Assembly: GCA_964527715.1 (NCBI GenBank)
Contig: CAZGOD010000004.1
Location: 11,355 to 75,354 of the forward strand
Direction of reading: 5' to 3'
Length of the DNA stretch: 64,000 nt
Origin: an uncultured Thermoplasmatales archaeon
GTDB lineage: Archaea; Thermoplasmatota; E2; DHVEG-1
Every line of letters starts with the position of its first letter. Position 1 is the first letter of the stretch. A program made the translations under genes and the position numbers. Under the pieces are notes generated by a model that ran no database searches, was not told where the DNA came from, and saw only the letters and a list, made by a program, of their open reading frames with translations. Of the stretch, positions 12,167-46,807 are shown piece after piece.

Positions 12167-15721
<3,555 letters not shown>

Positions 15722-19610: not shown

Positions 19611-20582
19611 ATGATACGCGAAAAACATCGGAACACGTTTGATTTATCTATATTTAGACGGAAGATCTATGAGTATATACGGACTTCCAGATTATCAGCA
19701 TGGTTAATGGCCTCAATTCCTTTTCTTTTAGGAGAATGGTTTTCTATCGGAAAATTTCCATTGTATACCTCGATTATAACATTAATTGCTATTGGATGCC
19801 TTCAATCAGCTGGATCATGGTTGAATTTTGTATTTGACCGTGAATTAGATAAACTTGCAGGAGACGACATAAGCTTTTTTGATTATATTTCTCCTCAAGA
19901 GATGGCTCTTTCGTCATTTATTCTTTCTATTATTGGTTTAGTAATAATGGTCTACATAGGACTAACTATGTTGCTACTAGGCTTATTAATTTTTATGTTC
20001 TGGGTTCTATATGTCACTCCACCCGTTAGGTTAAAAACAAGACCACCGTTTGATAGTATTTTTAATGCATTTGTATTTGCGCTTCTACCTTTTTGGATGG
20101 GCTGGACCATTACAGATCAGCTATTAACACCACTTGCTATTATTTATGGACTTACATTTGGCTTGATAGTTGTATCCTATTATATTCTACTTAGTAGCTT
20201 AGATATTGAAACGGATAAAAAATATGGAATTGAAACCTCATGTACTAAGCTAGGGTTTAAAGGTTCCATCAACATGAGTATAATCCTATACCTATTATCT
20301 CTGTTGCTTGCTTTATATTTATTTGGTATGGATTCGTTTGTTACTATTTCTTTTTTGATTTGTTTACCTTTATTTTTAGTTACAAGAATCAAATATGATA
20401 AAGCTACTCTGGGAATATTGATAGCTAGCATTTCTTTTGTTCTGATGGAATCTCTACTTATATCTATGTTTGTTATCTCTTTATCAATAACTCCTTTTGT
20501 TTTATTTATATTGAATCTATTAGTTACATTGTATTTCATTTTTGTTTATATAAAAATAATTAGGGATGGGTTACAGTTATAG
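19611..20582 (+). CDS. UbiA-family prenyltransferase (digeranylgeranylglyceryl-phosphate synthase-like)
   Basis: Polytopic, with a NFVFDRELDKLAGDD Asp-rich motif (N/DxxxDxxxD) and a second D-rich loop. Confidence 0.7.
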   Translation: MIREKHRNTFDLSIFRRKIYEYIRTSRLSAWLMASIPFLLGEWFSIGKFPLYTSIITLIAIGCLQSAGSWLNFVFDRELDKLAGDDISFFDYISPQEMALSSFILSIIGLVIMVYIGLTMLLLGLLIFMFWVLYVTPPVRLKTRPPFDSIFNAFVFALLPFWMGWTITDQLLTPLAIIYGLTFGLIVVSYYILLSSLDIETDKKYGIETSCTKLGFKGSINMSIILYLLSLLLALYLFGMDSFVTISFLICLPLFLVTRIKYDKATLGILIASISFVLMESLLISMFVISLSITPFVLFILNLLVTLYFIFVYIKIIRDGLQL

Positions 20583-21010
20583 ATCAAGAATTAATAATTT
20601 AACAAAAAAAATGAAGGGAGTATAACCCAACATGCCTCCGGCTAGGTAAATCGTTCTATGCGAGCTACTTCTTTTTCTTTTTAGATGCTGACTCTACTAC
20701 AAGGCCAACAGTCCAAGGGCAAACGGTCTTCATTAGCAAAACCGTACTTAGGATTGCATATGATTTCATCATTTTATTTATCACCAAGTATTTTTATTGG
20801 AATTCATATAATATTAATCTTGTGTTATTTTTCTCACAAAAATCTGCCAACATTTGTTATAATAATAACAGAGCGCTATTATTTCTCACATTTATTAAAA
20901 ATATGACAAATTATAACAGAAAATTAAAAAAATGAGTAAATAGATAAATTTTTATTTGAATTATTAACTATTTTTATATACCGAAAAACACATCAGCAAC
21001 TTCAACCACG

Positions 21011-22813
21011 ATGATACTAAAATCCTCCCCAAAAATTTACAACAACTATAAATGTAACTTTCCAGAAAACACTATAGATATAATCGGAAATGGCTTCAAA
21101 AAAATTGGGTTAAGTCTAAATTACAAACAACAAGAAATAAAAACGGAAAAATATTCGAGTTACTCTGGGGTATTACTAGAAGAAAATATGGGATTTTCAA
21201 CATTTGGTAAAGGTCTTTCCCCTATTTTATCCAAAGCCAGCGCCTATGCTGAAATGGCTGAAAGATTTTCCACCGGATTTTTTACTCTCCATCATTACGA
21301 TGACCTTAAAAACATAGACCGATACAATGAATTACTAAAAGACGTTGTTGAAAGAAAATTTCTGAGAGGGTGGAAAAAGAATAGAAATTCTGATTTAACA
21401 AATTTCACAAATATTAGCCGATATTTTCAAAACAAGATATCAAAAGATGAATACAGCATGTGGAAAAATCAGGGATTATTTGACACTCTAGTAGACAGCT
21501 ATTCATTAGTTAAAAAAAACTATTTGAAATTACCAATAAAATTTCTTGACATTGTAAGTGGCTCCACGGGTCTTGCTTCAGGCAATACCCTCGAAGAGGC
21601 TATAACTCAAGGTACATGTGAGATATTTGAAAGATCTGCAGCCTCTAAGATCGTATTTGAAAAAATTGAATGTCCCACCATTGAGATAACTACTATCAGA
21701 GATGATAGAATTCAAAAATTTGTTGAAATGTTTAACTCCATGAATTTCGATGTGATAATAAAGGATTTCACATTAAATAATACATTACCAGTTGTAGCCG
21801 TTTTATTTATTAATCACAACATAGAGGATGATGATAACCAGTTCAAAATAGATCGCTATTACAAGATGATAGATGTTGGATCACATATAAATTTAAACGA
21901 GGCAGTACTAAGATGTTTCGTTGAACGTTTACAAGAATTAACTAAAGAAGAATTCATGCATCGAAAGAAAGCAGATACATTATACAATTTTTGGACAAAA
22001 GAATTAAGTAAACAATACAAAAAAAACGAAGAAGCAACTTTAGATATTTTTGCAAATTATGATTATGCTGGAGATCTCTCATTTTTAGAAGAAGGAAAAA
22101 TGATCCCTTTCAATGAATTAGTAAGTGTAAATAGTTCGGATAATCTTGATGATTGTAAAACATTAACGGATATATGTAAAAGAAATAACTGGGATTTACA
22201 AATTATAGATTTTACTCATAAAATTTTGAAATTTCCTACAGTCAGAGTTGTTATCCCACGGCTTTCAACAGATTATGAACCACTGATGAGGAAATTATTA
22301 AGAATAAAAAATCATGAAGAAAAGTTCAATTTTTTCTACAGAATCAAAGATTTCTATAAGTATATAGCTGACGATAACTGGATTAATAACAAAGAAAAGA
22401 TAAGCACATTAATTAACAACATAGAAGAATCATTATCAATGGATTTATACGCTTTTCATTTTTGTTTAATGAGAGGAAATTTTCAACAGTTTGTTAATTT
22501 ATTCAATATTTTAGCTTTTTCGAATATGGCAATTGAAAAATACGAAAATGCAAAAAAATATTTCAAAATTATGCTAGAACTGAAATATATCCCTGCATTT
22601 TTTTCAACTTATTTTAACAAATTACTTAACCCGGGATACAACCCCTCGCTTCATTCAGATTACATAAAAAATATAGATACTGGATTGGAAAATAATAATA
22701 TGCCAAGGTTTAATTACAAATGTAACCCCTTTAAACCAGAATTATACTTGGAGGGCTTAGAACAAAAATTTGTTAATTTGCTGAAGAATATCAATAAAAG
22801 TTTTCTAAATTAA
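21011..22813 (+). CDS. ycaO: YcaO-domain protein, stand-alone E. coli-type with a C-terminal helical/TPR-like extension
   Basis: FGKGLSPILSKASAYAEMAERFST, STGLASGNTLEEAITQGTCEIFERSA (ATP-binding) and FPTVRVVIPRLS are the canonical YcaO motifs. About 200 aa of C-terminal extension. No TfuA or cyclodehydratase partner adjacent. Confidence 0.8.
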   Translation: MILKSSPKIYNNYKCNFPENTIDIIGNGFKKIGLSLNYKQQEIKTEKYSSYSGVLLEENMGFSTFGKGLSPILSKASAYAEMAERFSTGFFTLHHYDDLKNIDRYNELLKDVVERKFLRGWKKNRNSDLTNFTNISRYFQNKISKDEYSMWKNQGLFDTLVDSYSLVKKNYLKLPIKFLDIVSGSTGLASGNTLEEAITQGTCEIFERSAASKIVFEKIECPTIEITTIRDDRIQKFVEMFNSMNFDVIIKDFTLNNTLPVVAVLFINHNIEDDDNQFKIDRYYKMIDVGSHINLNEAVLRCFVERLQELTKEEFMHRKKADTLYNFWTKELSKQYKKNEEATLDIFANYDYAGDLSFLEEGKMIPFNELVSVNSSDNLDDCKTLTDICKRNNWDLQIIDFTHKILKFPTVRVVIPRLSTDYEPLMRKLLRIKNHEEKFNFFYRIKDFYKYIADDNWINNKEKISTLINNIEESLSMDLYAFHFCLMRGNFQQFVNLFNILAFSNMAIEKYENAKKYFKIMLELKYIPAFFSTYFNKLLNPGYNPSLHSDYIKNIDTGLENNNMPRFNYKCNPFKPELYLEGLEQKFVNLLKNINKSFLN

Positions 22814-22842
22814 AGAAAAAAACAATCATTAGGAAAATTAGT

Positions 22843-24156
22843 TTAACTTTGATATCTTAATAGCCTCAGATATAGATTCTGTGATGCTGTTTCCGTAGTA
22901 GGACGAAATCCTAGTCTTATACTTTTTGTAATTCTTCTAATGCTTTTTGAGGTGCTATGTAACTTTTTATAAAGTTCTCTAGTTTTTGTTAATAAATCAT
23001 CTGGTGTCATATGTTTGGGTTTGAACACTACATTTTCATAATTATATTTGTTCCAATCTCTAGTTAAAATTCTATCTTCTTTGTCCAATCTGTCAAATAA
23101 AGGTGTACCCGGATGAGGTGTTAATATCATAGCATCAGGAGCATCTATGTCGCTCATTTCTACAAATTTATATGTTGTCTCGAAGATATCTTTTGTATCA
23201 CCATCGAAACCAAAAACAAATGAGCCTAGTATTATCATTCCATGATCATGTATTTTTTTTACTGAGGAGAGATATGTTCGTACTTTGTTTGTTTTTTTAC
23301 CGATCATGTCAAGTGATTCCTGAGACATTGACTCAAAGCCTATTAGCCACCCTACGCAACCTGCCTCACTAGCTAATTTTAAAAATTCTTCATCATTGCC
23401 TAGGACGTTGATATTTCCAAATGCATAGAATTTTTTACCTATCTCTTTCATCTCTTTGAACAGTTTTTTTGAATAGTCTGGGTTGATTGTCATAGAGTTA
23501 TCATGGAAATTAAAGACTTTACCAGGTACTTCTTTGATTTCTTTAATTACTTCATCAATTGGTCTCATTCTGAAAATATTTCTAAATTTCATGTTTGTAA
23601 TCGCGCAGAATTCGCAGCCATATGGACATCCTCGGGTGGCTTGTACTCCAAGAAGCGGGCCTTTAGGATATAAGTTAAGTGGATGAGGTATAAATTTTGG
23701 ATCTACAGATCTTGTTGGATAATAAAATGGTTTAGGTTTACTCATTTCTACATCTTTTAATAGTTGTGGCCATATCTCTTCAGCTTCTCCTATAACTACG
23801 CTGTTTGCATGTTGTTTTGCTTCTTCAGGTAGAGCAGATGGATGCCAACCTCCAAGAACAACGAATTGACCTCGACGTCTGAATTCATCTGCTATTTCAT
23901 ATGCCCATAACGCATAGCGGGTATGGACGGTTATGCCAACTAAGTCATATTTTTCATCAAAATTGATATCTCCAGCGCCACCTTCTATCATTTCTACAGA
24001 ATGCTCTTTAGGTGTTAACGCTGCTAATATTGGAAGAGTCAAAGGCTTAGGATATGAAAAGAATTTTGATAAAAATCTATGTAAAGTACTTCTATCTGGA
24101 TCATATTCCTCAAAAGTTAAATTTGGTGGTCGAGGCCAGATCAATAGTATTCTCAT
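22843..24156 (-). CDS. B12-binding-domain radical SAM enzyme (class B rSAM)
   Basis: N-terminal cobalamin-binding fold (DLVGITVHTRYALWAYEIADEFRRRGQFVVLGGWHPSALPEEA) followed by a QATRGCPYGCEFCA CxxxCxxC rSAM cluster. Confidence 0.8.
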   Translation of the reverse strand: MRILLIWPRPPNLTFEEYDPDRSTLHRFLSKFFSYPKPLTLPILAALTPKEHSVEMIEGGAGDINFDEKYDLVGITVHTRYALWAYEIADEFRRRGQFVVLGGWHPSALPEEAKQHANSVVIGEAEEIWPQLLKDVEMSKPKPFYYPTRSVDPKFIPHPLNLYPKGPLLGVQATRGCPYGCEFCAITNMKFRNIFRMRPIDEVIKEIKEVPGKVFNFHDNSMTINPDYSKKLFKEMKEIGKKFYAFGNINVLGNDEEFLKLASEAGCVGWLIGFESMSQESLDMIGKKTNKVRTYLSSVKKIHDHGMIILGSFVFGFDGDTKDIFETTYKFVEMSDIDAPDAMILTPHPGTPLFDRLDKEDRILTRDWNKYNYENVVFKPKHMTPDDLLTKTRELYKKLHSTSKSIRRITKSIRLGFRPTTETASQNLYLRLLRYQS

Positions 24157-24252
24157 ATAGCATAGTGTTAATCAAACTATTATATAAGTCTTTTTGAAAA
24201 AATAAAAAAAATTTAGCAGCAATGTTAATAACTCAATTAGGAATTAAACAAT

Positions 24253-24858
24253 ATGCTTTCCTATAATATTAGAGAAGCAAGGGAAGAAGACATAAATGAA
24301 ATTGTTGAGTTAGTTTTGATTTGTTTCTCAAAAAAATTCAAAGTAATTTTTAGTTCAAAAATTAATAAGGGAAGACTTGCATTAATTGAAGATTTTAAAA
24401 ATAGAAAAATCATAGAAGGCACATTTGTTGCAGTTAACAACGGAAAAATCATAGGTGCTTTTTCTTTTTTTATCAAAGAATTACAATATGACTGGTTTTC
24501 CACGATGCAGACTTACATTAAATACTTCGGAGTATATCGAGGTATGAAATCTATCATAATAGGTGGTTTGCTCCCATTTAACATTAAAAATGAAGCATGT
24601 TTCATGGATTATATAGGCGTTCTACCTGAATTTCGCGGGCATGGGGTAGCTAAGAAATTAATTAAACATGGAGAAAAACTTTTAGCTGAAAAAGATAAGA
24701 AATACCTTTTTGGTTTCGTCAGCTCGTTGAATCATGCATCGAGAAAACTATTTGTTGAGCTTGATTACACAGAGAAAAAAGCAAGAAAAAGCATTACTGG
24801 TAGACTTTTCTTTAAAGATCCTAACTGGATACGCCTTGAAAAAAATATAAATCAATAA
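24253..24858 (+). CDS. GNAT-family N-acetyltransferase
   Basis: IREAREEDINEIVEL start, and an acetyl-CoA binding region around GVLPEFRGHGVAKKLIKHGEKL (Q/RxxGxG/A motif). Confidence 0.65.
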   Translation: MLSYNIREAREEDINEIVELVLICFSKKFKVIFSSKINKGRLALIEDFKNRKIIEGTFVAVNNGKIIGAFSFFIKELQYDWFSTMQTYIKYFGVYRGMKSIIIGGLLPFNIKNEACFMDYIGVLPEFRGHGVAKKLIKHGEKLLAEKDKKYLFGFVSSLNHASRKLFVELDYTEKKARKSITGRLFFKDPNWIRLEKNINQ

Positions 24859-24955
24859 TTCCCCCTATACTAAATTATAAGATATAGAAATATTAGCAAA
24901 TTATTAGTAAATTATATATATAATAAAGCCGAATAATGTAACCAACTGGGTTGAT

Positions 24956-26443
24956 ATGAAAAGAAAGACAAGTAAGATGCCTAAGAAAACCTTAGCTTTT
25001 GTTCTATTTATTTTAATGTTTACCTTAACTATTAGCTCAAGTATCGCTGCGCGATTTTTGGATCAGAATATATCTGAGATAAAAAATGAAAATAGTGTAT
25101 TTACTGACAGCACACAATACGATCTATTAATAATAGCCCCCGGCAGATACTCAAAACAACTTCAACCATTAATAAAACATAAAAACCAAATAGGAATCAC
25201 AACAAAGCTTGTAACACTCGCGCAAGTATACAAACAAACATTCTGGGAAGGAAGAGATCAACCAGAAAAAATCAAATACTTCATCAAAAACGCAATAGAA
25301 CACTGGAATATAACATACGTACTACTCATAGGAGACTACAGACAACTACCCGTAAGATACTGCTATAATGATTTTGAAGATGATCTTTTTACAGAACCGA
25401 GATTTATTTCTGATCTATATTACGCAGATATCTACGACAAACAAGGAAACTTCTCAAGCTGGGACACTAACAACAATGGAATATACGGAGAATGGAAAGG
25501 AGAAGAAGCACAAGATAAAAACATCGATCTATACCCTGATGTCTATTTAGGGAGATTAGCCTGCAAAAATAGACTGGAAGTAAAAACAGTAGTTAATAAA
25601 ATAATCACATATGAAACAAGTACATACAACCAATCATGGTTTAAAAACATGGTCGCAGTAGCAGGAGACACCTATCCGCATATAAATAATATATCTGAGG
25701 GGGAAGAAGCTACTCAGCAGGCAATAGATTACATGGATGGTTTTAACCCTATAAAACTCTGGGCATCCAATGGGGAGCTAATTACAATGGGTGGCCTGAA
25801 AATACTAAAAACAATCAATAAAGGATGCGGGTTCATCTACTTCGCAGGACATGGTAACCCACCTTTCTGGATTACAAATCCTCATAACGAAAGCGAAGGT
25901 GAAGGCATTGGTTTTTTTTCAATACTCCATATAAGATTTTTAACTAATGGGTATAAACTACCAGTTTGTATAGCACCTGGATGTGGAAATAGCATGATAG
26001 ATGTATCTCCACTAAATATATTCAAATCTGATGATTACTGGTATATCAGACTAAATAAATGGAATTATATTTCCGAATGCTGGAGCTGGCAAATGGTACG
26101 CAAACCTGGCGGAGGAGCAATAGCAACTATAGGCAGCACTGGGATAGGATGTTTAAAAGAGGATGAAAATGCTGGTGGGACTGGTGCATGGAGCTATCTA
26201 GCCACTCAATTTTTCTGGGAATATAGTGTAAACAGTAAAGATATACTGGGTGAAATGTGGGCAAAAACAACTAGTGATCATCTCAATGAATTCCCAATTA
26301 ATTGGAGTACACCCTCAATGAATCAAAATAGACCTGGGTCTGAGCCTGACGCTGTCAATGCTAGAACTGTTCAACAATGTCTACTGCTAGGCGATCCGAG
26401 CTTAAAAATAGGTGGATACAACATTAAAGAAGAAAAAGGTTAA
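24956..26443 (+). CDS. Secreted clan-CD cysteine peptidase, gingipain-like (family C25)
   Basis: Signal peptide. DLLIIAPGRYSKQLQPLIKHKNQIGITTKLVTLAQVY and YVLLIGD match the C25 N-terminal region. FAGHGNP is the His dyad, CIAPGCG the candidate catalytic Cys, and the C-terminal LLGDPSL matches C25. Confidence 0.6.
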   Translation: MKRKTSKMPKKTLAFVLFILMFTLTISSSIAARFLDQNISEIKNENSVFTDSTQYDLLIIAPGRYSKQLQPLIKHKNQIGITTKLVTLAQVYKQTFWEGRDQPEKIKYFIKNAIEHWNITYVLLIGDYRQLPVRYCYNDFEDDLFTEPRFISDLYYADIYDKQGNFSSWDTNNNGIYGEWKGEEAQDKNIDLYPDVYLGRLACKNRLEVKTVVNKIITYETSTYNQSWFKNMVAVAGDTYPHINNISEGEEATQQAIDYMDGFNPIKLWASNGELITMGGLKILKTINKGCGFIYFAGHGNPPFWITNPHNESEGEGIGFFSILHIRFLTNGYKLPVCIAPGCGNSMIDVSPLNIFKSDDYWYIRLNKWNYISECWSWQMVRKPGGGAIATIGSTGIGCLKEDENAGGTGAWSYLATQFFWEYSVNSKDILGEMWAKTTSDHLNEFPINWSTPSMNQNRPGSEPDAVNARTVQQCLLLGDPSLKIGGYNIKEEKG

Positions 26444-30257: not shown

Positions 30258-30331
30258 GCCCGCATGAGGTAGTTTGGATATCCTGAAGGCTTGCGGAGCC
30301 TTCTACTCGGGTTCGAATCCCGATGCGGGCG
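30258..30331 (+). tRNA. tRNA-Arg (anticodon GCG)
   Basis: 7-bp acceptor stem GCCCGCA/UGCGGGC. Anticodon stem AAGGC/GCCUU with loop UUGCGGA (U33, G37). T-arm UCGGG-UUCGAAU-CCCGA. Discriminator G. No encoded CCA. The D-arm is less canonical: 3-bp AGG/CCU with an internal GGATATCC palindrome. Confidence 0.85.
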
Positions 30332-30341
30332 TAAAAAACAC

Positions 30342-31073
30342 TCAATTTTTTTTGTTAAATATGTAAAATAGAATTGCAATTAATGCTATATGATATGCAA
30401 ATCCTATCCCTAAATGGACAATGTCGAGTGTCCCATTTTGGAGTACAGAGTCAAGCGACATAATTGTCCAAAAGTTTGGAATTGGGCTAAATATGTATTT
30501 AAGATTACCAAGGTTGAGGAAAAAGGCAAATAATGGAAGTATAAATACTGTTCCAGAAATTTTGAAAATAGCGAAAGCTTGTACTTTATTTGATGCAAAT
30601 GAACTTACCAATAACGCAAGAAATGGTGTAAAAAGCGCAAACAATATAGCAACTGGAATATACGCAGAGTATGAAAATTGTGTGCCATCTACAAGTCCTG
30701 AGAGCGGAGGAAATATTAGCAACACAATAAAGGCAAAAAGTGACATAAAAAACATACGATATACTAGATAGCTATTTCTTGATATAGGCATAACTCGTAG
30801 AACTGTTAGTAAATGCTCATCTCTTTCATCTAGTATTAAAAATCCAACAATGAAACTGAAAATCATTGGAATCGCTATCGAAAAAAACATAAAAAGTAAT
30901 GGAAAATTTGCTGCAAGAGGAAACACATTTTCAATTCTTGGCGCGATCAAATGTACAATTATTCTTGAAAATACAATTAACATAACTGGATAAAGAAACA
31001 ATAAAAAAACAAGGAGACGATCCCGTATAACGTTTCTTAAGTCATTAACTGCAAGTTTGAGGATATATACCAT
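30342..31073 (-). CDS. ABC-2 type transporter permease
   Basis: 243 aa with 6 TM helices, in an operon with an ABC ATPase. Confidence 0.55.
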   Translation of the reverse strand: MVYILKLAVNDLRNVIRDRLLVFLLFLYPVMLIVFSRIIVHLIAPRIENVFPLAANFPLLFMFFSIAIPMIFSFIVGFLILDERDEHLLTVLRVMPISRNSYLVYRMFFMSLFAFIVLLIFPPLSGLVDGTQFSYSAYIPVAILFALFTPFLALLVSSFASNKVQAFAIFKISGTVFILPLFAFFLNLGNLKYIFSPIPNFWTIMSLDSVLQNGTLDIVHLGIGFAYHIALIAILFYIFNKKN

Positions 31074-31078
31074 TTTTC

Positions 31079-31795
31079 TTATCCTCCTTTCAATACTATA
31101 TGCTTATAAAATGCCTTTTTTGCTAGGAAATAAAGCAGTCCGATCCATAATACTTGATAACCAATTCCATATGCTATCTCCCACAACTCCAGGCTAGCGG
31201 CATTAAAAACACCGGTAAAGAGAGTAAATGATGCTTGTGTAGGCCATAAGTAGAATATCACGTTTTCATATAGTCCAGATAAATGTAGCATTGGAGGAAA
31301 AAGTAGTCCTAGAAATGCGATCAACATGGCAAGTAAGTATTCATTAATGCTGTTTACACGAGAGACTAGGATAAATCCCAGAAGAATAAGCATAACCGAT
31401 GTAAGAATGATTCCTAATGCTAGAAATAATATGTTAAAATCAATACCGCTAAAAATATTCAACAGAGTCACGAATATTGCTGCGGATATAATTGATAGGA
31501 TTGTAAGTGATAGTATCTTTGATAAAAGATAATCATCTACTTTCATAGGGGTTATTACTAAAGCTTGAAGTACGTTTTCTGATTTTTCAAACAACACCAA
31601 TGCGCCTACAAACATTATGCCAATTATTGCCGGGTCAAAAAATAACAGCATTGTATGAAAAATTGGTCGGTTCATATCCTCTATAGCTTGAGTTGTAAGA
31701 AAATATAAAATTACACTTAGAATCGAAAGGTGAATAATCTTATATCTAGACAAAAGGACGAATTCCCATTTGAGCATATTTTTCAGATTACTCAT
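31079..31795 (-). CDS. ABC-2 type transporter permease
   Basis: 238 aa with 6 TM helices. 4-nt overlap with the upstream ATPase gene. Confidence 0.55.
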   Translation of the reverse strand: MSNLKNMLKWEFVLLSRYKIIHLSILSVILYFLTTQAIEDMNRPIFHTMLLFFDPAIIGIMFVGALVLFEKSENVLQALVITPMKVDDYLLSKILSLTILSIISAAIFVTLLNIFSGIDFNILFLALGIILTSVMLILLGFILVSRVNSINEYLLAMLIAFLGLLFPPMLHLSGLYENVIFYLWPTQASFTLFTGVFNAASLELWEIAYGIGYQVLWIGLLYFLAKKAFYKHIVLKGG

Positions 31796-32646
31796 TTCAA
31801 CTGCCTACCTGTGGCTTTAATAAATATATCATCCAGAGTTGCTTCTGCTGTATGAATTGTCTGAACATTTCCACTTCTCAAAAGATTCAAAAAACTGCCG
31901 TTATCTGCAATATTCTTGAGATCAAACTCTTTACTTTTCAACTCATCATTTTTTAGATATTCCACTTTAACAACTTTTTTACCGTGTCTAATTTTTAGTT
32001 CTCTGGGGCTTTCAATTAAAACCAATTTTCCATCAACAATAAAACCTACTTGATCACAGAGCTCATCAGCATCATTCATGTTATGAGTTGTGAGAAAAAT
32101 TGCTTTGCCTTCTTTCCTTTTTTGTTTAATTATGTTTTTAATTAATCGTGAGTTAATTGGGTCAAGACCTGTAGTAGGTTCATCGAGGAAAAGAACTTCA
32201 GGATTATTTAGTAAGGATCTTGCAAAGTTAAGTTTTGATTTCATTCCTTTTGAAAAGGTTCCAACTCGCTGGTTTGCATCTTCTTCAAGTTCTACCATTT
32301 TTAAAAGTTGCATAGGTGGAATTGTTCTTCGACGGTAAAATGATGCGAAAAGTTCAAGGTTTTCTAAGGCTGTAAGTTTTTGATAATGATTAGGAAGTTC
32401 AAAACCAACTCCAATTCTATTATAAAGATCTGTTTTCCAACTTTGAAGGTTTTTACCAATGATTTCCACATTTCCTCCATATCCTCTTAAAAGTCCGATT
32501 ATTACTTTTTGTGTTGTGGTTTTACCTGCACCATTTGGACCAAGAAAACCAAATATTTCTCCTTTTTTAATCCCAAATGAAACACCATTTACTGCTTTTT
32601 TATTTGATTTTGGGTAAGTAAATTCTAGGTTTTGTACCTTTAACAT
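31792..32646 (-). CDS. ABC transporter ATP-binding protein
   Basis: GPNGAGKTT Walker A, FSKGMKSKLNFA signature-like motif, LFLDEPTTGLD Walker B, H-loop TTH. Confidence 0.85.
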   Translation of the reverse strand: MLKVQNLEFTYPKSNKKAVNGVSFGIKKGEIFGFLGPNGAGKTTTQKVIIGLLRGYGGNVEIIGKNLQSWKTDLYNRIGVGFELPNHYQKLTALENLELFASFYRRRTIPPMQLLKMVELEEDANQRVGTFSKGMKSKLNFARSLLNNPEVLFLDEPTTGLDPINSRLIKNIIKQKRKEGKAIFLTTHNMNDADELCDQVGFIVDGKLVLIESPRELKIRHGKKVVKVEYLKNDELKSKEFDLKNIADNGSFLNLLRSGNVQTIHTAEATLDDIFIKATGRQLK

Positions 32647-39527: not shown

Positions 39528-40088
39528 CTATTTTTTGAGATAACTAATCAATTTCTGTAAAGATTTACCTCTATGCGAGAACCAGTTTTTTTCATCTACG
39601 CTCATCTGAGCAAATGTTTTACTAGAACCATCAGGTATGAAAATAGGATCATACCCAAAACCATCTTCTCCTAACTCGTTCTTAGATATTTTACCAAGGC
39701 ATTCACCCACAAAGAGAACAGGTTTCCTACCGGGCACTGAGTAGGCATAAACCGACCGGAAACAAGCTTTTCTACCGTTTTCATCAATTCTCTCCATCAA
39801 TCTCAAAATACCTTTACAACCGATTGTATGAAAAACATAAGAAGAAAACACACCAGGAAAACCCTCCATGGCATCTATGAAGAGACCTGCATCCTCCAGA
39901 ATAAAAGGTTGATCAAACTTTTCCCGAATTTGTTCCACACCATAACGAGCGACATCCTCCAAAGCATCTGTTTGTATCTCAGGATAACCTAGATTTTTCT
40001 GAACTATTTCCAAGTCAACTTTTGAAAACTTGTTTTTTGCCTCTAAAACTTTACCCTTATTACTAGTAATAAAATACAAAGTTTTCAT
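39528..40088 (-). CDS. Non-canonical purine NTP pyrophosphatase (Ham1/RdgB/ITPase)
   Basis: MKTLYFITSNKGKVLEAK...PEIQTD...FILEDAGLFIDAMEGFPGVFSSY...GFGYDPIF: Ham1 family motifs. Confidence 0.8.
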   Translation of the reverse strand: MKTLYFITSNKGKVLEAKNKFSKVDLEIVQKNLGYPEIQTDALEDVARYGVEQIREKFDQPFILEDAGLFIDAMEGFPGVFSSYVFHTIGCKGILRLMERIDENGRKACFRSVYAYSVPGRKPVLFVGECLGKISKNELGEDGFGYDPIFIPDGSSKTFAQMSVDEKNWFSHRGKSLQKLISYLKK

Positions 40089-40711
40089 CTATACCGTCCT
40101 CTTTTAACAATATCCTGAATCTTTTTTATAACAAGGTTTGCATCATCTTTTAACGCGTTTTTATAACCTTCCAGTACATATTCAAAACAATTAGAATACT
40201 TCGAATGCGTTGACTCTATAGCCTCCATGAGAACATGTAAATCAACACCCTTTGCTTCAATTTCACCATTTTTTTCACCAAGTCCAAAATCAATAAAATG
40301 AACACGATCATCCAAGAGTATCATATTAGACGTTGTAATATCACCATGTATTATGTCATTGTTATGGAACTTTGCAATACTTTCACCGATTTTCCTACAA
40401 AGATCTTGACGTTCCTTTTCACTCAAATCATTCAGTATGTCCTTTACCCGTTTACCCTTTAGATATTCCATAGTGATGACCGCATCATCGAGATCTACAT
40501 CATAGATTATTGGTACTGATACACCATATAGACGTGCCTCAGTAATAAGCTTAGATTCTTCTTTAGTACGCATAGATATCAAACGATTATCAATATGTTT
40601 TATCCGATAAGATTTAGGTATCCTCCTTTTTTCAATTACATCAAAACCCATGTAATCTGAGACATATATCTCTGCCTCAGCCCCCTTGTAAATTATTTTT
40701 TTATTACCCAC
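40085..40711 (-). CDS. bud32: KEOPS kinase Bud32 (RIO-type atypical kinase)
   Basis: GAEAEIY...IIHGDITTSNMIL...FIDFGLG are the kinase motifs. Overlaps kae1 by 8 nt in the typical kae1-bud32 arrangement. Confidence 0.8.
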   Translation of the reverse strand: MGNKKIIYKGAEAEIYVSDYMGFDVIEKRRIPKSYRIKHIDNRLISMRTKEESKLITEARLYGVSVPIIYDVDLDDAVITMEYLKGKRVKDILNDLSEKERQDLCRKIGESIAKFHNNDIIHGDITTSNMILLDDRVHFIDFGLGEKNGEIEAKGVDLHVLMEAIESTHSKYSNCFEYVLEGYKNALKDDANLVIKKIQDIVKRGRYR

Positions 40712-41699
40712 GCCAAGTCACATCCACCATATCAGTTCTGAAACGCTGATCAATAAAGCTATTCTCAACTTTCATCCTAATGCCACTATTATACATTAGA
40801 ACACCAAGCCATGCTATCATAGCACCATTATCAATGCATAAATCCTTACTTGGAACATAAAAAGATGCACCACGTTCATATGCCATTATTTTAACCATAT
40901 CCTGCAAACGCTTATTACTAGCAACACCCCCGCCAAGCAATACCTCATCTTTCTCCATATGAGCCATAGCCCGCTCAGTAACCTCAGTAAGAGCAGCAAA
41001 AGTAGTTTCCTGAATAGAATAACAAATATCCTCCAACTTTTCATCATTCTTATAGTACTGCTCCGCCGCAGTGAGAAGCCCTGAAAAAGCAATATCCATA
41101 CCTTTAATCGAGTAGGGGAGCTCCAAATAACCATCACCCTTTTTCGCTAGTTCCTCAATCTTTGGACCACAAGGAAAATCAAGACCCACTGTCCTACCAA
41201 ACTTATCAAGACAGTTTCCAATGCCAATATCAAGTGTTTCACCAAAAACACGATAACGTCCCTCAGCAAACGCGATAACCTGAGTATTAGCACCAGAGGT
41301 ATACAAAAGTACAGGATCCCTGCAGCCATCAAGTGTCCCACTACCAATCTCAAGATGAGCAACACAGTGATTCACACCCATAATAGGTTTATCAAGAGAA
41401 AGAGAAAGAGCACGCGCCGCTGTAGCAGCAGTCCTAAGACAAGGACCCAGACCAGGGCCCCTGGAAAAAGATACAAGATCAACATCAGCAAAATCAACCT
41501 GTGATTTTTCAACAGATTCCTTAATCACATCAGCAATAATACCAGCATGATGGTTCGCTGCTTCACGGGGATGAATACCACCTGTTTCAGGTCTATAACT
41601 CTTAATAACATTAGAAAGAACCTTGCATTTATGGTTAACCTCTTCTACAATACCAACACCAATCGAATGAGCTGTTCCCTCTATACCAAGACAAATCAT
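40704..41699 (-). CDS. kae1: tRNA N6-adenosine threonylcarbamoyltransferase Kae1
   Basis: MICLGIEGTAHSIGVGIV...HCVAHLEIG...GGGVASNKRL: ASKHA-fold Kae1/TsaD motifs, including the metal-binding His pair. Confidence 0.9.
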   Translation of the reverse strand: MICLGIEGTAHSIGVGIVEEVNHKCKVLSNVIKSYRPETGGIHPREAANHHAGIIADVIKESVEKSQVDFADVDLVSFSRGPGLGPCLRTAATAARALSLSLDKPIMGVNHCVAHLEIGSGTLDGCRDPVLLYTSGANTQVIAFAEGRYRVFGETLDIGIGNCLDKFGRTVGLDFPCGPKIEELAKKGDGYLELPYSIKGMDIAFSGLLTAAEQYYKNDEKLEDICYSIQETTFAALTEVTERAMAHMEKDEVLLGGGVASNKRLQDMVKIMAYERGASFYVPSKDLCIDNGAMIAWLGVLMYNSGIRMKVENSFIDQRFRTDMVDVTWRG

Positions 41700-41759
41700 A
41701 ATTCAAAAGGGCCATAAACAAGTAGTATAAAATAAGTTTGGTTCAAAAAAAAGTTTTAT

Positions 41760-42278
41760 TTATTTTTTAGCGTAACCAACTGGAATAACCGCCACAGGTT
41801 TCAATGATTTGGGAAGATCCAATACATCATTTAAAAAACCCATTTCCATAGGAGTATAAGTAAGTGTCGCCAGACCCTCATTCTCCGCAGCAAGAATGAC
41901 ATATGCTATAGAAATCCAAGTGGACTCCAGCCAGTACGGTTTATCAGTTTCACTGGCTATAACTAATAGGAGAGGTGCATCAACTAGAAAATCTTTCTTA
42001 AGAGAAACATCCTTGTTTTTCATCCATTGTTTAAACCAAGCTGGACTAGACTTGTAATATTTTTTATCAGCTTGTTCACAAAAATTTTTGATTTTTTCTT
42101 TTAAATTAGCATCATCAACTATAATATAAACAAAAGGTTTCTGATCAGCCCCGGAGGGTGATAGCTGCCCAGCTTTCAAAATTAATTGCAGTTTTTCCAC
42201 GGGTACTTTTTTAGTTAAAAAACCTCTGGTGCTCCTCCGATTTTCCATCAACTTGTAAAGATCCATAGTTATCTTCAA
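41760..42278 (-). CDS. Nitroreductase-family flavoprotein
   Basis: RRSTRGFLTKKVPVEKLQLILKAGQLSPSGADQKPFVYIIV is the nitroreductase N-terminal FMN-binding signature. Confidence 0.7.
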   Translation of the reverse strand: MKITMDLYKLMENRRSTRGFLTKKVPVEKLQLILKAGQLSPSGADQKPFVYIIVDDANLKEKIKNFCEQADKKYYKSSPAWFKQWMKNKDVSLKKDFLVDAPLLLVIASETDKPYWLESTWISIAYVILAAENEGLATLTYTPMEMGFLNDVLDLPKSLKPVAVIPVGYAKK

Positions 42279-42290
42279 AAAAACACTGTA

Positions 42291-45200
42291 TTATTTTTTT
42301 ATTCCAATCTCTGCATGAATCTGATCAATGTCCCATTTTTTAACAAGTTTACCAACTGGTTTATCCACGTAACTAATTTCTTTGGACCGAGTTTCGTTTT
42401 TAATGTAACTGCCCCATTTTTCTAGGGCTTTCTTTTTATCAGAACCGATTTTGATTTCTGTAATGATTTTATCTTCAACATCAAGATCTAGTTCTTTTCT
42501 CATTGACTGTATTCGCCTGACAATTTCTCTTGCGAAACCCTCTGCTTCTAGTTCAGATGTTAGATGAGTATCAAGCAGTAGAGTTACTTTATCTGTGGAT
42601 GTACGAGCTATGTGTTCTTTTTCTGTTTCAACTATTTCAAAATCATCCTTGTTAAGTATGATTTTTTCGCCATCAACGTTGATTATAATTTTTTTGTTCT
42701 TATTGATCTCATTGTAAAGCTGGTTCTTATCCATTTCATCAATTTTACTTAGAACAAGTTTTGCTTTTTCTTTTAATCTTTTACCAAGATTAGAATGATT
42801 TGGTTTCAATGATTTTATCATAAATTTAGATGTATCTCTCTCAAAGGAAACATTTTTTACATTAATTTCTTCATTAAGCAGGTCTAGTAGGTTTTTTATT
42901 GAATCCTCAGTTTTTTTATCACATACAAGGGTCGCGCTACTAAGTGGGTATCTTACTTTAATTCCAATTTTTGATCTTAGAGATCTTCCTACTTCTACGA
43001 GTTCTCGTATTTGTTCCATTCCTTGTTCTAGTTCTTTGTTAATCTGGTTTTTATCTGCTTTAAGGTAATCACATAGGTGCACACTTTCAGACATTTTATC
43101 TGTTTTAAGATTTTGATATATTTCCTCAGTGATAAATGGTATGAATGGTGCTAGTAGTTTTGATAAACCTAAAAAAACATCGTACATCGTGGAGTACCCT
43201 GAGAGTTTATCATCTGTTTTTTCCTCCACCCATAACCGTTTCCTAGAGCGACGTAAGTACCAGTTGCTGAAATCCTCGATAACAAAATTTTCTATAAATC
43301 TTGCAGCTTTATGAACCTCAAAACTCTTAAAATATGATCTGGTCTCTTTTATGGTTTTATTGAATCTACTTAGAATCCATTTGTCTATTAGCTGCCTTTT
43401 TCCTATAGGGAGCATGTCTTTTTTTGGGTCGAATTTATCAAGAGCAGCATATGTTGTGAAAAAGTTATATGAATTCCAAAATGTTAAAATAAACTTACCC
43501 AACATGTCTTTTACTGCTTGTTCATAGAATCTTGTCGACGTCCAAGGTGCATTCGCGGATATAAGGTACCATCTGAGTGCATCAGCCCCCTCATTATCTA
43601 GGATTATATCTGGGTCGACATAGTTACGTTTGCTTTTACTCATTTTTTGATTATTTTCATCTAGTACAAGTCCTAGTGTGAGCACGTTTTTATATGAGCG
43701 TTCATCAAATAGGAAAGTTGATATTGCTAGGAGTGAATAAAACCAGCCACGTGTCTGATCAAGTGCCTCAGATATAAAATCAACTGGGAAGTTTTTCTTG
43801 AATTCTTCCTGGTTTTCAAATGGATAATGCCATTGAGCAAAAAATGCTGAGCCAGAGTCGTACCAGCAGTCAATTACTTCTTCCTCACGTTTCATAGGTG
43901 ATTTACATTTAGGGCATTTTACAACTAACTCGTCTACTAGTGGTTTATGTAAATCATAATCATCTGGGAATGATTCACTTAGTTCTCTGAGTTCTTTAAC
44001 ACTTCCAATGCATATTTCATGTTTGCATTTTTTATCTGTACAAGTCCATATCGGAAGTGGTGTACCCCAGTATCGTTTACGGGATAGAGCCCAGTCTTTT
44101 ACTTCACGTATGAAATCCCCGAAACGTCCTTGTTGAAGGTGCTCTGGGTACCAGTTGATATTGTTGTTATTCTTAACTAGGGAGTCTTGTACTTTTGTCA
44201 TGGCAATAAACCAGGACTCCATAGCATAGTACAATAGTGGTGATTCACATCGCCAGCAAAATGGATACTCATGTTTGTATTGATGTACCCCCTCAATTAG
44301 CCCACGTTCCTCAAGGTTTTCAATTATACTCGGATCTGCATCTTTTACAAATTGTCCTTTCCAGAGTTCAACCTCAGGTGGAAAGGTTCCATCTAGTTTT
44401 ACAAGTTGAACAACTGGTAGGTCACATTTCCTACCAATATCGTAGTCATCTTCACCAAAAGCTGGAGCAATATGAACAATTCCAGTTCCATCTTCCATTG
44501 TTACAAAATCAGCTAGAACAACATACCACGCTTTCTTATCAGGTTTAGCATAATCAAAAAGTGGTTCGTACTCAATCCCCTCTAATTCTTTACCTTTATA
44601 GCCATCAAGTAGCTCAAAGTTTTGACCTTTTAATAACACGTTTGCACGTTCTTCAGCTAGAATTAAAACTTGATTGTTATAGCGTATTTTAACATATAAA
44701 TCCTTAGGATTTACAGCTAAAGCTACATTTGAAATAAGTGTCCATGGTGTGGTAGTCCATGCCAGGAAATAGGCATCCTCTTTTTTCAATTTGAATTTAA
44801 CAAAAACTGATGGCTCCTCAACAGTTTTATAACCCTGCGATATCTCATGAGCTGAAAGCGCTGTGCCACAACGCGGGCAATATGGTACAACCTTATGACC
44901 CTTGTAAAGAAGCTTCTTTTCCCATGCCTGCTTAAGAGACCACCAAACAGATTCTATGTAATCATTTTTCAAAGTAATATATGGATCATCCATATCAAGC
45001 CAAAAAGCAATACGCTTAGTCATCTCAACCCATACATTTTCATATTTGAAAACACATTTCTTACATGCCTCATTGAAATCTTTTATACCGTATTCCTCAA
45101 CGCCTTGTTTATCCTCAAGTCCTAGTTCCTTTTCAACCTCAATCTCAACTGGTAAACCATGCGTATCCCATCCTGCTTTACGGAGTATATAATGACCATT

Positions 45201-45434
45201 CATCGCCTGATATCTTAGAACTAAGTCTTTCATGACACGAGTGAGAACATGACCGGGATGGGGTAACCCATTAGCAGTAGGGGGACCTTCTAAAAAAATA
45301 TAAGGCTTACATCCTTTTCTTTGATCTATCGATTTTTGAAATATACTGTTATCTTCCCAGAATTTCAGAATTTTTTTCTCAACTTGATTTGGATTGTATT
45401 TTTGCGGTGGTGATTTTATCATCGTTTTTTTCAC
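42291..45434 (-). CDS. ileS: Isoleucyl-tRNA synthetase
   Basis: PHPGH (HIGH) motif, KMSKS motif (QKMSKSKRN), CP1 editing domain, C-terminal zinc-binding Cys pairs. 1047 aa. Confidence 0.9.
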   Translation of the reverse strand: MKKTMIKSPPQKYNPNQVEKKILKFWEDNSIFQKSIDQRKGCKPYIFLEGPPTANGLPHPGHVLTRVMKDLVLRYQAMNGHYILRKAGWDTHGLPVEIEVEKELGLEDKQGVEEYGIKDFNEACKKCVFKYENVWVEMTKRIAFWLDMDDPYITLKNDYIESVWWSLKQAWEKKLLYKGHKVVPYCPRCGTALSAHEISQGYKTVEEPSVFVKFKLKKEDAYFLAWTTTPWTLISNVALAVNPKDLYVKIRYNNQVLILAEERANVLLKGQNFELLDGYKGKELEGIEYEPLFDYAKPDKKAWYVVLADFVTMEDGTGIVHIAPAFGEDDYDIGRKCDLPVVQLVKLDGTFPPEVELWKGQFVKDADPSIIENLEERGLIEGVHQYKHEYPFCWRCESPLLYYAMESWFIAMTKVQDSLVKNNNNINWYPEHLQQGRFGDFIREVKDWALSRKRYWGTPLPIWTCTDKKCKHEICIGSVKELRELSESFPDDYDLHKPLVDELVVKCPKCKSPMKREEEVIDCWYDSGSAFFAQWHYPFENQEEFKKNFPVDFISEALDQTRGWFYSLLAISTFLFDERSYKNVLTLGLVLDENNQKMSKSKRNYVDPDIILDNEGADALRWYLISANAPWTSTRFYEQAVKDMLGKFILTFWNSYNFFTTYAALDKFDPKKDMLPIGKRQLIDKWILSRFNKTIKETRSYFKSFEVHKAARFIENFVIEDFSNWYLRRSRKRLWVEEKTDDKLSGYSTMYDVFLGLSKLLAPFIPFITEEIYQNLKTDKMSESVHLCDYLKADKNQINKELEQGMEQIRELVEVGRSLRSKIGIKVRYPLSSATLVCDKKTEDSIKNLLDLLNEEINVKNVSFERDTSKFMIKSLKPNHSNLGKRLKEKAKLVLSKIDEMDKNQLYNEINKNKKIIINVDGEKIILNKDDFEIVETEKEHIARTSTDKVTLLLDTHLTSELEAEGFAREIVRRIQSMRKELDLDVEDKIITEIKIGSDKKKALEKWGSYIKNETRSKEISYVDKPVGKLVKKWDIDQIHAEIGIKK

Positions 45435-45496
45435 CAGTTATAGATGAACACCCTAATGACAAAAGACCGTTAAAACGGTTTCCATCATAACAGAAT

Positions 45497-46807
45497 CTAA
45501 TAATTTTTAATGTCATTTGTTTTCATAAACTCTCTTAGAAGCGATGTCGCATAGCATCCCTTGCTAAGTTCAAATTTCAAAACTAACGCAGATCTATTAC
45601 CAGTTAACTCATTATCAACTAGTTTAAAATCAAAGTTTTTTGCATGAGCAACTATAGGACGTCTGGAACCCTTACTAGAAATCCTTGGTATATCAGGTAT
45701 TATAAAATCCCGAGGATCAATTTTTTCTTTATCAATAACCCTATGTTCTATTTCACCTATCTCACCATCAGAGAAAACCGTATCACTACCAAATAAAATA
45801 CCACTAACCGCAGCTTTACCCCTTAAGATTTGTTTATTCACTTTTTTGACATTATTTCTCCTGATAGGGATTCCAGTTTCTTCAACAATGTTTTTTCTAA
45901 TTGGGAGAACAACATCACCAACAACTGCCTCATTCAAAGGAAAACCCTGTTTTATACGTTCACTTAAAATCCTATTAAAAAGAAATGATTGATACGCATA
46001 AACAAACATTGTTAAAAGATTCCTAGGGAGTTCTTTTAGAGCGCCAATAAAATCTTCAGAGTCAGTAACCAACTTATTAAGAATAGCTTTTTCAAAACCT
46101 AGGTGAATAGGATAAGATTTCAAAGCCTTAGGAAAATCACGAGTTTCTTCCAACTCGCTACGAACACTGTAGCTTTCTTCATCTTCGCCTTTAACAGGAT
46201 TTCCGATATAACTCATAACTGCTTTTTCAAACTCATCCTTCACAATAAATTTACCAACAACATGTGTGATAGGTCTAATAACTCCAAAACGTTGAATACC
46301 ATAAAAATTCGGGAAACCACCTGCTTCAACAACATAGGAATAAATATCCTTTATCCTCTTAGGCTCTATCCCATTCTCAAGGTTTCTAACGACAATCTCA
46401 AATCTATTGCCAATAAGACCACCTATTTTAACAGAGCGATTAGAGTAGTAAATATTTTCAATATCAACATCTTTGATTTTCATCCTAGACAGATTTTCAA
46501 TAGATATACCATCAAAGGACATTAATCGCGTAGTCTTCGCTCTTTTATCCTTAGTCCCCCCAAAACCAACTCTATTACGAGAAACATGTAAACGATTAGA
46601 TAGCTCTCTGACAAGGAGGTTTGTCTCCCAGTTAGTTGATGTAACCTCTGCAATTGTAAATCTACCATCTTTAGTTTTTGATGGATAAGAAGAGATTTCT
46701 TTTACAGTAAAATCCTTGGGTATTGTACGAAGTTTTCCACCTATCCCCCCAAAAGGTGTAAAAAAAACTTCTACTCCTACACTTTTTTCAGATTCTAAGA
46801 CTTTCAT
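45497..46807 (-). CDS. truD: tRNA pseudouridine synthase TruD/Pus7 family
   Basis: GFGGTKDKRAKTTRLMS (catalytic Asp motif) and GGFPNFYGIQRFG (TruD signature). Confidence 0.8.
   Translation of the reverse strand: MKVLESEKSVGVEVFFTPFGGIGGKLRTIPKDFTVKEISSYPSKTKDGRFTIAEVTSTNWETNLLVRELSNRLHVSRNRVGFGGTKDKRAKTTRLMSFDGISIENLSRMKIKDVDIENIYYSNRSVKIGGLIGNRFEIVVRNLENGIEPKRIKDIYSYVVEAGGFPNFYGIQRFGVIRPITHVVGKFIVKDEFEKAVMSYIGNPVKGEDEESYSVRSELEETRDFPKALKSYPIHLGFEKAILNKLVTDSEDFIGALKELPRNLLTMFVYAYQSFLFNRILSERIKQGFPLNEAVVGDVVLPIRKNIVEETGIPIRRNNVKKVNKQILRGKAAVSGILFGSDTVFSDGEIGEIEHRVIDKEKIDPRDFIIPDIPRISSKGSRRPIVAHAKNFDFKLVDNELTGNRSALVLKFELSKGCYATSLLREFMKTNDIKNY

Follow-up and report, generated by a model that had tools for sequence, protein, structure and literature searches.

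A conserved YcaO, B12-radical SAM and C25 peptidase cassette with adjoining mini-genes: a probable RiPP-like peptide-maturation system in uncultured sediment Thermoplasmata

A 64-kb window of contig CAZGOD010000004.1, from an uncultured Thermoplasmatales archaeon, encodes a YcaO enzyme beside a class-B (cobalamin-binding) radical S-adenosylmethionine (SAM) enzyme, a C25 cysteine peptidase and a UbiA-family prenyltransferase; coordinates below are positions in this window unless a related locus is named. As judged by sequence comparison, these four genes are a conserved cassette in sediment Thermoplasmata. The cassette is probably concerned with peptide maturation of a kind resembling that of ribosomally made peptides that are modified after translation (RiPPs), and would act on the product of a mini-gene adjoining ycaO. 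A first-pass annotation of the DNA had placed the YcaO, radical SAM, GNAT and C25 genes exactly, all four being confirmed among the open reading frames (ORFs) of the window, while the conserved UbiA neighbour falls just beyond the limits of that annotation (21011-26443). The features are as follows.

19611-20582, plus strand: divergent UbiA-family membrane prenyltransferase (Pfam-level match), accessory in the window's subclade
20665-20772, minus strand: candidate precursor peptide gene, preceded by a Shine-Dalgarno (SD) sequence and with homologues in the same slot
21011-22813, plus strand: YcaO (PF02624, 600 residues)
22843-24156, minus strand: class-B radical SAM enzyme, 'type a' (Radical_SAM, B12-binding and DUF4070 domains)
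24253-24858, plus strand: GNAT acetyltransferase (PF00583, E = 1e-10), membership in the cluster doubtful
24956-26443, plus strand: C25 cysteine peptidase, gingipain-like, clan CD (PF01364, E = 4e-56)

The mini-gene lies in a 430-bp spacer. Its product, (MMKSYAILSTVLL)MKTVCPWTVGLVVESASKKKKK, has a hydrophobic head at the N-terminus (...CPWTVGLVV...) and a C-terminal tail of five Lys residues. The 35-residue form, MMKSYAILSTVLLMKTVCPWTVGLVVESASKKKKK, comprises a hydrophobic stretch of about 20 residues followed by KKKKK and begins at an ATGATG start with the SD sequence GGTGAT 8 nt before it; an internal ATG (20665-20733) gives a 22-residue form, the length seen in the closest homologues. An oligo-T run follows some 55 nt past the stop codon. 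Among the targets contemplated in the first-pass annotation was a peptide encoded in this spacer (20583-21010), and this is the option that the evidence favours. For comparison, related contigs (designated L plus a number) were considered, about 25 being fetched and annotated by BLAST against the window proteins and their neighbours, with flanks of up to 10 kb on each side of the family YcaO. Homologues of the window peptide are encoded in the same slot and on the same strand, between UbiA and YcaO, in L176 (MTMATICPYAFGLLAVDSKKKK) and in L004 (two copies, MAMVS[IV]SPY[TA]FGLLVVDEKKKK), and the peptides of this subclade conserve the motif [CS]-P-[WY]. A phmmer search with the L004 peptide against the 2967 six-frame segments of the whole window returned the mini-ORF as best match (E = 0.016; next best 0.8). 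Only two intergenic ORFs of 14-70 residues in the 64 kb have both an SD sequence and an ATG, and 20665-20772 is one of them. The other, at 47924-48091 (minus strand), is unannotated and encodes a 55-residue, Zn-ribbon-like product with two CxxC pairs (MEIECSKCQ...CIKCRKK...). A 73-residue ORF on the plus strand of the spacer (20685-20906) was rejected as a gene, having no family match and being absent among the cross-locus clusters listed.

Clustering of small ORFs across loci, together with reading of the spacers beside ycaO, revealed homologous peptides of 18-29 residues adjoining a 41-56% identical YcaO in about 20 Thermoplasmata metagenome loci. The arrangement expected of a RiPP cluster, a precursor gene next to the enzymes, is seen both for 20665-20772 and for its homologues. 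The family pattern is a hydrophobic head containing [WYL]-(xx)-Gly, then a poly-Lys or poly-Glu tail. Peptides of the type M..IPWGPFLKLRKKKK are encoded in L013, L014, L015, L100 and L173, those of the type MP.FTASYGKFLSLNKE(D/E)n, often two per locus, in L005, L010, L017, L093, L096 and L099, while those of L018 and L097 are divergent. Nearly all of the peptide genes have, 5-10 nt upstream, an SD-like sequence of the form GGTGA or GGAGG. Codon differences, summed over non-independent locus pairs, amount to 131 synonymous vs 22 non-synonymous for SYGK[FI]LS[LI] and to 43 vs 14 for [HP]WGP[FL]LK, indicating purifying selection. The orientation of the genes relative to ycaO varies, and L004, L005, L013, L093 and L096 have duplicates; both features speak against a cis-acting element at the level of DNA or RNA. 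No such mini-ORF was present in nine loci with more distant YcaOs (at most 35% identity), drawn from Methanotrichaceae, Heimdallarchaeota and candidate phyla radiation bacteria, Desulfobacterales loci being left out.

Some details of individual loci may be recorded here. The duplication in L013 is a tandem one of about 252 bp (13198-13696), giving two identical peptide genes inclusive of their upstream region. In L013 (13532-13606) and L015 (13315-13389) the nominal ATG/TTG start coincides in part with the GGTGAT that serves elsewhere as the SD sequence. Translation from an ATA lying in frame 7 nt downstream, which may be a non-canonical start, would yield MPDA(I/T)..HWGPF.., similar to the 'MP...' N-termini and head length of the family. 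In L011 (4433-9543) three tandem SNF-family transporter genes are each followed by a hydrophobic ORF of 37 residues; these look like small transporter subunits, and one of them, picked up as a precursor peptide by the motif scan, was discarded as a false positive.

Peptide type and enzyme type vary together. In a neighbour-joining (NJ) tree of the YcaOs, constructed, like that of the C25 peptidases below, without support values, two clades are seen. Clade A, which includes the window copy, goes with [PH][WY](xx)G/poly-K peptides, radical SAM enzymes of type a and C25 peptidases. Clade B goes with SYGKFLS/poly-E peptides, radical SAM enzymes of a type b that shares only 26% identity with type a, and a cytoplasmic Cys protease of the transglutaminase-like kind, in which the Cys/His motifs of such proteases are kept.

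The first-pass annotation had made its pairing of ycaO with the radical SAM gene depend on synteny in other genomes, and the two prove to be adjacent in most relatives, in varying order and orientation. A B12-radical SAM gene has ycaO as its neighbour in the window, L004, L005, L010, L013, L015-L018, L093, L096, L097, L099, L173, L174 and L176. The C25 peptidase, too, is a recurrent partner: a form of about 440-495 residues is encoded adjacent to YcaO in the window, L005, L013, L015, L093, L096, L100, L173, L174 and L176/L177 and on a 24-kb Joint Genome Institute (JGI) contig. That the YcaO/radical SAM/C25 association recurs in many independent contigs, the order of the genes being shuffled, argues that the adjacency is not due to chance. 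The window order of UbiA, peptide (minus strand), YcaO and radical SAM is found again in L004, where UbiA is 45% identical, and in L176/L177; UbiA is also present on the JGI contig and is conserved within the window's subclade.

The surroundings of the cassette vary. In the window it is placed between agmatinase and aIF5A, and the flanking genes are archaeal (agmatinase, aIF5A, Hel308, topoisomerase VI, Kae1/Bud32). A block comprising TruD, IleRS, Kae1/TsaD, a Bud32-like kinase and Ham1 is syntenic between the window (39528-46807, minus strand) and L173 (1-5583), the YcaO cassette following Ham1 in L173 and not in the window. The G+C content of the window falls to 0.30-0.32 over 20-26 kb, the adjoining bins of 2 kb having 0.34 and 0.37. 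The different placement relative to the conserved Ham1 block, along with this dip, suggests that the cassette relocates as a unit.

Variant cassettes were also encountered. In L008 (10001-18423) and L011 (10001-18526) there is no B12-radical SAM enzyme and methyltransferases take its place: the contents are YcaO, three to four membrane methyltransferases resembling isoprenylcysteine carboxyl methyltransferase (ICMT) or phosphatidylethanolamine N-methyltransferase (PEMT), an ABC-2 exporter and a MiaB/RimO-like methylthiotransferase for which no equivalog assignment was obtained. A 21-residue peptide, M[AI]DSVLPLGPVSLLKLL..., is encoded beside the methylthiotransferase in this PEMT variant. The JGI contig (3300042731; 24,272 bp) has two paralogous YcaOs and joins both variants, in the order YcaO, C25, B12-radical SAM, nitroreductase, UbiA, YcaO, 32-residue ORF, PEMT/ICMT and methylthiotransferase. 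It alone among the related contigs has the nitroreductase-family gene, whose product is possibly an azoline dehydrogenase.

The window YcaO matches PF02624 over all 325 of 325 profile positions (E = 8e-43; 147 bits against a gathering threshold of 25.7). Its canonical ATP-binding motifs are present as first described: the ATP/Mg motifs S-x3-E-x2-E-R and E-x2-E-R (E81, E84, R85, E196, E204, E207 and R208) are invariant among 28 homologues. An AlphaFold2 model based on those homologues (mean pLDDT 89.9, pTM 0.91) consists of the YcaO core plus an extra, mostly helical C-terminal domain of about 180 residues, in agreement with the long helical extension read from the sequence. Its best fold matches in the PDB are full-length E. 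coli YcaO structures (4Q84-86; TM-score about 0.55, 15% identity), which outrank LynD as well as the enzymes of M. jannaschii and M. kandleri; the N-terminal α-β3 unit gives weak matches only, to folds like the double-stranded RNA-binding domain. The best PDB sequence match, on the other hand, is M. jannaschii MJ1094 (6PE3/6PEU, E = 2e-11). Scores against the curated subfamily models fall far below their cut-offs: 73.9 bits vs 365 for TIGR03266 (McrA-glycine thioamidation), 64 vs 700 for NF040716 (E. coli type, acting on uL16) and 83.4 vs 219 for TIGR03604 (SagD-type cyclodehydratase of thiazole/oxazole-modified microcins). The isoelectric point (pI) is 7.51 and the net charge +1, whereas the uL16-modifying enzymes have an acidic pI of 4.4, by which they have been recognised (PMC13063428). 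The earlier description of the enzyme as of E. coli type is therefore apt for its two-domain fold and not for its subfamily score or pI. Around 80 full-length homologues (about 600 residues) are 41-56% identical to the window copy, and in a full-library search full-length matches were obtained in roughly 45-50 clusters, defined at 50% identity. All of the named close relatives come from Thermoplasmata or Thermoplasmatales metagenome-assembled genomes (MAGs), and no close relative scores as high as the cut-off curated for any named subfamily of YcaO. Profile scans of the window genes between 17 and 35 kb gave no match to TfuA or to an E1/ThiF-like protein, bearing out the reported absence of such partners next to YcaO, and TfuA was equally lacking among the called genes of the related loci.

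The radical SAM gene is convergent with ycaO, its stop codon lying 29 bp from that of ycaO. The protein has the motif CPYGCEFC (Cx3Cx2C) and contains PF02310 (B12-binding; 33.3 bits, gathering threshold 32.1), PF04055 (81 bits) and DUF4070, as expected of a class-B, cobalamin-dependent enzyme. No NCBIfam equivalog was reached, the best being BchE (114 bits vs 481), and identity to the YcaO-adjacent enzymes of L004, L013 and L015 is 53-69%. The protein is presumed, as its most plausible role, to be a C-methyltransferase acting on the peptide.

The C25 peptidase scores 191 bits against PF01364 (gathering threshold 23). Its His298 and Cys343 align with H211 and C244 of gingipain RgpB, this dyad being kept in all orthologues, and the column corresponding to RgpB Asp163 is Asp in most of them. 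The first-pass annotation had called the peptidase secreted. This holds for the window copy, whose N-terminus, MKRKTSKMPKKTLAFVLFILMFTLTISSSIAA, is signal-peptide-like, but most YcaO-linked orthologues have neither a signal peptide nor room for one. The C25 family as a whole is very large, with at least 5958 matches at E ≤ 1e-20 and signal-like N-termini in 101 of the best 120. In an NJ tree of 126 homologues all confirmed YcaO-linked members nevertheless form one clade, apart from a secreted majority that includes two members without YcaO nearby. The neighbours of one of these (L178) are a serpin, PKD-domain proteins and an Opp-type oligopeptide ABC importer; those of the other (L179) are urocanase, histidine ammonia-lyase and an M28 peptidase. 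Such surroundings indicate that a nutritional, protein-degrading role fits most of the family. The closest homologue of the window enzyme (65% identity) lies in another C25-UbiA-peptide-YcaO-radical SAM cluster of different gene order. From that homologue and from the single clade, C25 appears likely to be a dedicated partner of the YcaO cassette. Not counted as partners were the C25 peptidases of 940-967 residues near YcaO in L004 and L011, unrelated to that of the window, and the homologue P0346, tentatively flagged as YcaO-linked but falling in the secreted clade.

Of the remaining window genes, UbiA matched no named model, the best NCBIfam prenyltransferase giving 62.8 bits against a cut-off of 269. 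The GNAT acetyltransferase, listed with the cluster in the first-pass annotation, was found by BLAST only in the window and in L001/L002, all from one organism; this lack of conservation elsewhere speaks against membership, and the protein is probably outside the system. An ABC-2 type exporter, comprising two permeases and a DrrA-like ATPase, is encoded at 30342-32646 (minus strand), 4 kb past C25. Its ATPase and the ABC ATPase within the PEMT-variant cassette share 36% identity, and the exporter could serve the peptide or be unrelated. The sole tRNA of the window, a tRNA-Arg (30258-30331), is outside the cluster. An Rfam scan of 18-28 kb revealed no structured RNA in the spacer. A SNORD112-like C/D-box match inside ycaO (22276-22330, plus strand; 28 bits vs a gathering score of 58, E = 0.029) is most likely due to chance. 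Scanning for sigma-70 promoters and terminators gave counts equal to those of shuffled sequence, the model not being applicable to an archaeon. Among the related Thermoplasmata contigs, housekeeping genes containing inteins were seen in L011 (18615-21830), L176 (12230-14800) and L179 (623-3724), examples being gyrase A and an SRP54 with a LAGLIDADG intein.

A route of maturation may be proposed from these associations. The hydrophobic head would be the core and the charged tail a C-terminal follower or a solubilising pro-sequence. YcaO would use ATP to phosphorylate a backbone amide of the core, and attack by sulfide would then leave a thioamide on, or adjacent to, the near-invariant Gly found after an aromatic residue, with no need of TfuA. 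The class-B radical SAM enzyme would C-methylate an unactivated carbon of the core. The C25 peptidase might cut after Lys and so remove the tail, extracellularly or at the membrane for the window organism and in the cytoplasm for most relatives; another possible site is the Lys found before many poly-Glu tails. Trimming of a Lys tail is suggested by the Arg/Lys specificity of gingipain-type clan CD enzymes, along with the acidic residue in the S1 column of most orthologues. Lipidation of Trp or Tyr by UbiA is speculative. The product might serve as a signal or an antimicrobial, or be cofactor-like.

As to the YcaO chemistry, no specific product can be called probable. A thioamide is the one towards which we lean, at somewhat short of an even chance. 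In the family as a whole no Cys, Ser or Thr occupies a fixed conserved position, and the near-invariant Gly after an aromatic residue recalls the aromatic-flanked thioGly465 of McrA (PMC5589413). Moreover, the nearest characterised relatives by sequence and by fold make thioamides without TfuA (PMC5589413, PMC13063428), and sulfide would be available if, as contig and sample labels imply, the source sediments are anoxic and sulfidic. The main alternative, distinctly less likely, is an azoline formed on the Cys or Ser of [CS]-P-[WY] in the window's subclade, an amidine or some other product making up the remainder.

Several observations weigh against a peptide-maturation role or complicate it. 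The conservation of [CS]-P-[WY] in the subclade, together with the nitroreductase gene of a related contig, makes an azol(in)e a serious competitor of the thioamide. The S1 Asp column reads GEEA in the window C25 and GE[LMI]D in most orthologues. No domain like a RiPP recognition element (RRE) was identified, nor was there a Pfam match to PqqD/RRE; poly-K and poly-E tails would be unusual recognition elements. As to charge complementarity with the tails, the YcaO partners of E-tailed peptides are all net positive and those of K-tailed peptides range from -21 to +18. The cluster has no internal exporter, even though the window C25 looks secreted. As for the peptides themselves, they are too short for database-wide statistics, none is recognisable in L016, and the window peptide may begin at either of two start codons, giving the form of 35 or that of 22 residues. 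A single hidden Markov model (HMM) of all 18 peptides misses the window peptide, which is retrieved by a model of the closest subgroup alone, so that its membership of the family rests on subgroup similarity and position.

Three other explanations were weighed against maturation of the mini-ORF product. It is conceivable, albeit unlikely, that YcaO and the B12-radical SAM enzyme thioamidate and methylate a full-length cellular protein, as with McrA or uL16, and that the mini-ORFs are unrelated to them. Both of the closest characterised stand-alone thioamide-forming YcaOs act on proteins (PMC13063428, PMC5589413), the two-domain fold resembles that of E. coli YcaO, and aIF5A and other translation genes are close by. 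The ribosomal or MCR-like (methyl-coenzyme M reductase) target entertained in the first-pass annotation is nonetheless disfavoured: there are no mcr genes, the scores against both the McrA-type and the E. coli-type models are far under their cut-offs, and the pI is not the acidic 4.4 of the uL16 enzymes (PMC13063428). Furthermore, the housekeeping neighbours vary by locus, whereas the mini-ORF is a constant presence whose type varies in step with the enzymes. The same co-variation, in which peptide type tracks enzyme subtype and not promoter arrangement, counts against a reading only a little less probable than a protein target, namely that the peptides are real without being substrates and are small membrane or tail-anchored peptides, toxins or translated leaders that regulate the adjacent genes. 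The 35-residue form of the window does resemble a membrane peptide obeying the positive-inside rule (about 20 hydrophobic residues, then KKKKK), and poly-Lys tracts can stall ribosomes. In most members, however, the hydrophobic residues number only 10-15, which would not suffice to cross a membrane, and some tails are poly-Glu; occurrence on either strand and at varied positions in the cluster means that they are not consistently upstream leaders.

Improbable, and the least credible of the three, is a coincidental neighbourhood in which C25 is an ordinary secreted degradative peptidase and the other genes are unrelated housekeeping genes or orphans. In its favour, the C25 family is of great size with prevailing signal-like N-termini, YcaO-less members have beside them oligopeptide transporters, a serpin or genes of amino-acid catabolism, and the long C25 peptidases of L004 and L011 lie near YcaO while being unrelated to the window type. 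Against this stand the monophyly of the YcaO-linked C25 peptidases in the NJ tree, the recurrence of the closest window homologue in a C25-UbiA-peptide-YcaO-radical SAM cluster and the finding that, in the fetched flanks, the short type of C25 occurs only beside YcaO, bar one copy 6 kb away.

Were maturation of the mini-ORF product correct, YcaO chemistry would gain a new substrate logic, that of a leaderless core with a poly-charged tail, and one clade of the gingipain-like peptidases abundant in sediment Thermoplasmata would have a non-nutritional role. The system lends itself to experiment, with substrates of 22-35 residues, a soluble YcaO with a confident model, a partner radical SAM enzyme and a candidate peptidase. 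More generally, 'empty' spacers of archaeal MAGs can hide conserved mini-genes.

Neither a paper mentioning both YcaO and gingipain nor one on this Thermoplasmata YcaO family was found, in a literature search that is incomplete. In an archaeal survey, YcaO/radical SAM RiPP clusters are mentioned only generically, from antiSMASH, and attempts at activation failed (10.1101/2024.10.07.616454). What is unusual here among YcaO/radical SAM RiPP-like pathways is the precursor architecture and the new type of partner peptidase. That the cassette is the founding example of an archaeal RiPP class, with components new to RiPP pathways, is a bolder and rather doubtful proposition. Its products would be thioamidated or methylated peptides, possibly lipidated and exported to act as signals or antimicrobials in anoxic sediments, a functional analogue of the maturation of ComX or a-factor. 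Such a class would be defined by an E. coli-like two-domain YcaO, leaderless precursors of about 20 residues with poly-charged tails, a gingipain-family tail peptidase and accessories varying by lineage (UbiA prenyltransferase, ICMT/PEMT-like methyltransferases, MiaB/RimO-like methylthiotransferases).

Comparison with known systems reveals partial resemblances to each of several. The McrA thioglycine YcaO (methanogenesis marker 1, e.g. MJ1094) gives the best PDB sequence match of the window enzyme and is likewise paired with B12-radical SAM enzymes, the MCR methylases. TfuA is not obligatory in M. jannaschii or M. kandleri, and aromatic residues flank the modified Gly of McrA (PMC5589413), a setting like the [WY]-G of the peptides. 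The McrA substrate, however, is an enzyme of 570 residues and not a presumed peptide of about 20, the window YcaO fails TIGR03266 and has an extra C-terminal domain, and no mcr genes are in view. E. coli-type YcaO, which thioamidates Met82 of uL16 (PMC13063428), is the best two-domain fold match and likewise stands alone without TfuA, differing in its low identity (15%), in the NF040716 score and in pI, neutral here. Small ORFs adjoin the archaeal gene; their absence at E. coli ycaO was used to argue for a protein substrate (PMC13063428). In the streptamidine-type families discovered with RiPPER (PMC8442711), as here, unannotated short peptides are encoded next to stand-alone YcaO genes and their motifs map to YcaO sub-clades; a peptide type that tracks the YcaO clade is the very argument by which the streptamidine family was defined (PMC8442711). 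Those families differ in being actinobacterial, with leader-core-follower precursors, amidine chemistry and other partner enzymes (PMC8442711).

Among peptidases, the His/Cys dyad and fold family are shared with gingipains and PorU, as would be the role of a protease removing a C-terminal signal. Gingipains differ in their Ig-like and C-terminal domains, missing in most of the YcaO-linked C25 peptidases, which are cytoplasmic. The clade-B partners have Cys/His motifs in common with the transglutaminase-like leader peptidases (B type) of lasso peptides. In its core-plus-follower logic the cassette appears closest to bottromycin, whose cluster encodes the stand-alone YcaOs BotC and BotCD and class-B radical SAM C-methyltransferases acting on a precursor with a C-terminal follower. 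The comparison, drawn from established knowledge of bottromycin, shows several differences: the window system is archaeal, with one YcaO bearing an extra C-terminal domain; its tail is a low-complexity poly-K or poly-E tract of 4-15 residues and not a structured follower of about 35; a C25 or transglutaminase-like peptidase stands in place of the amidohydrolase and M17 enzyme; and the precursors have no sequence relationship. Common to both are a short precursor with an N-terminal core and a C-terminal extension, a YcaO operating without E1/ThiF, a cobalamin-dependent radical SAM enzyme in the cluster and a separate hydrolase that removes, or here would remove, the follower.

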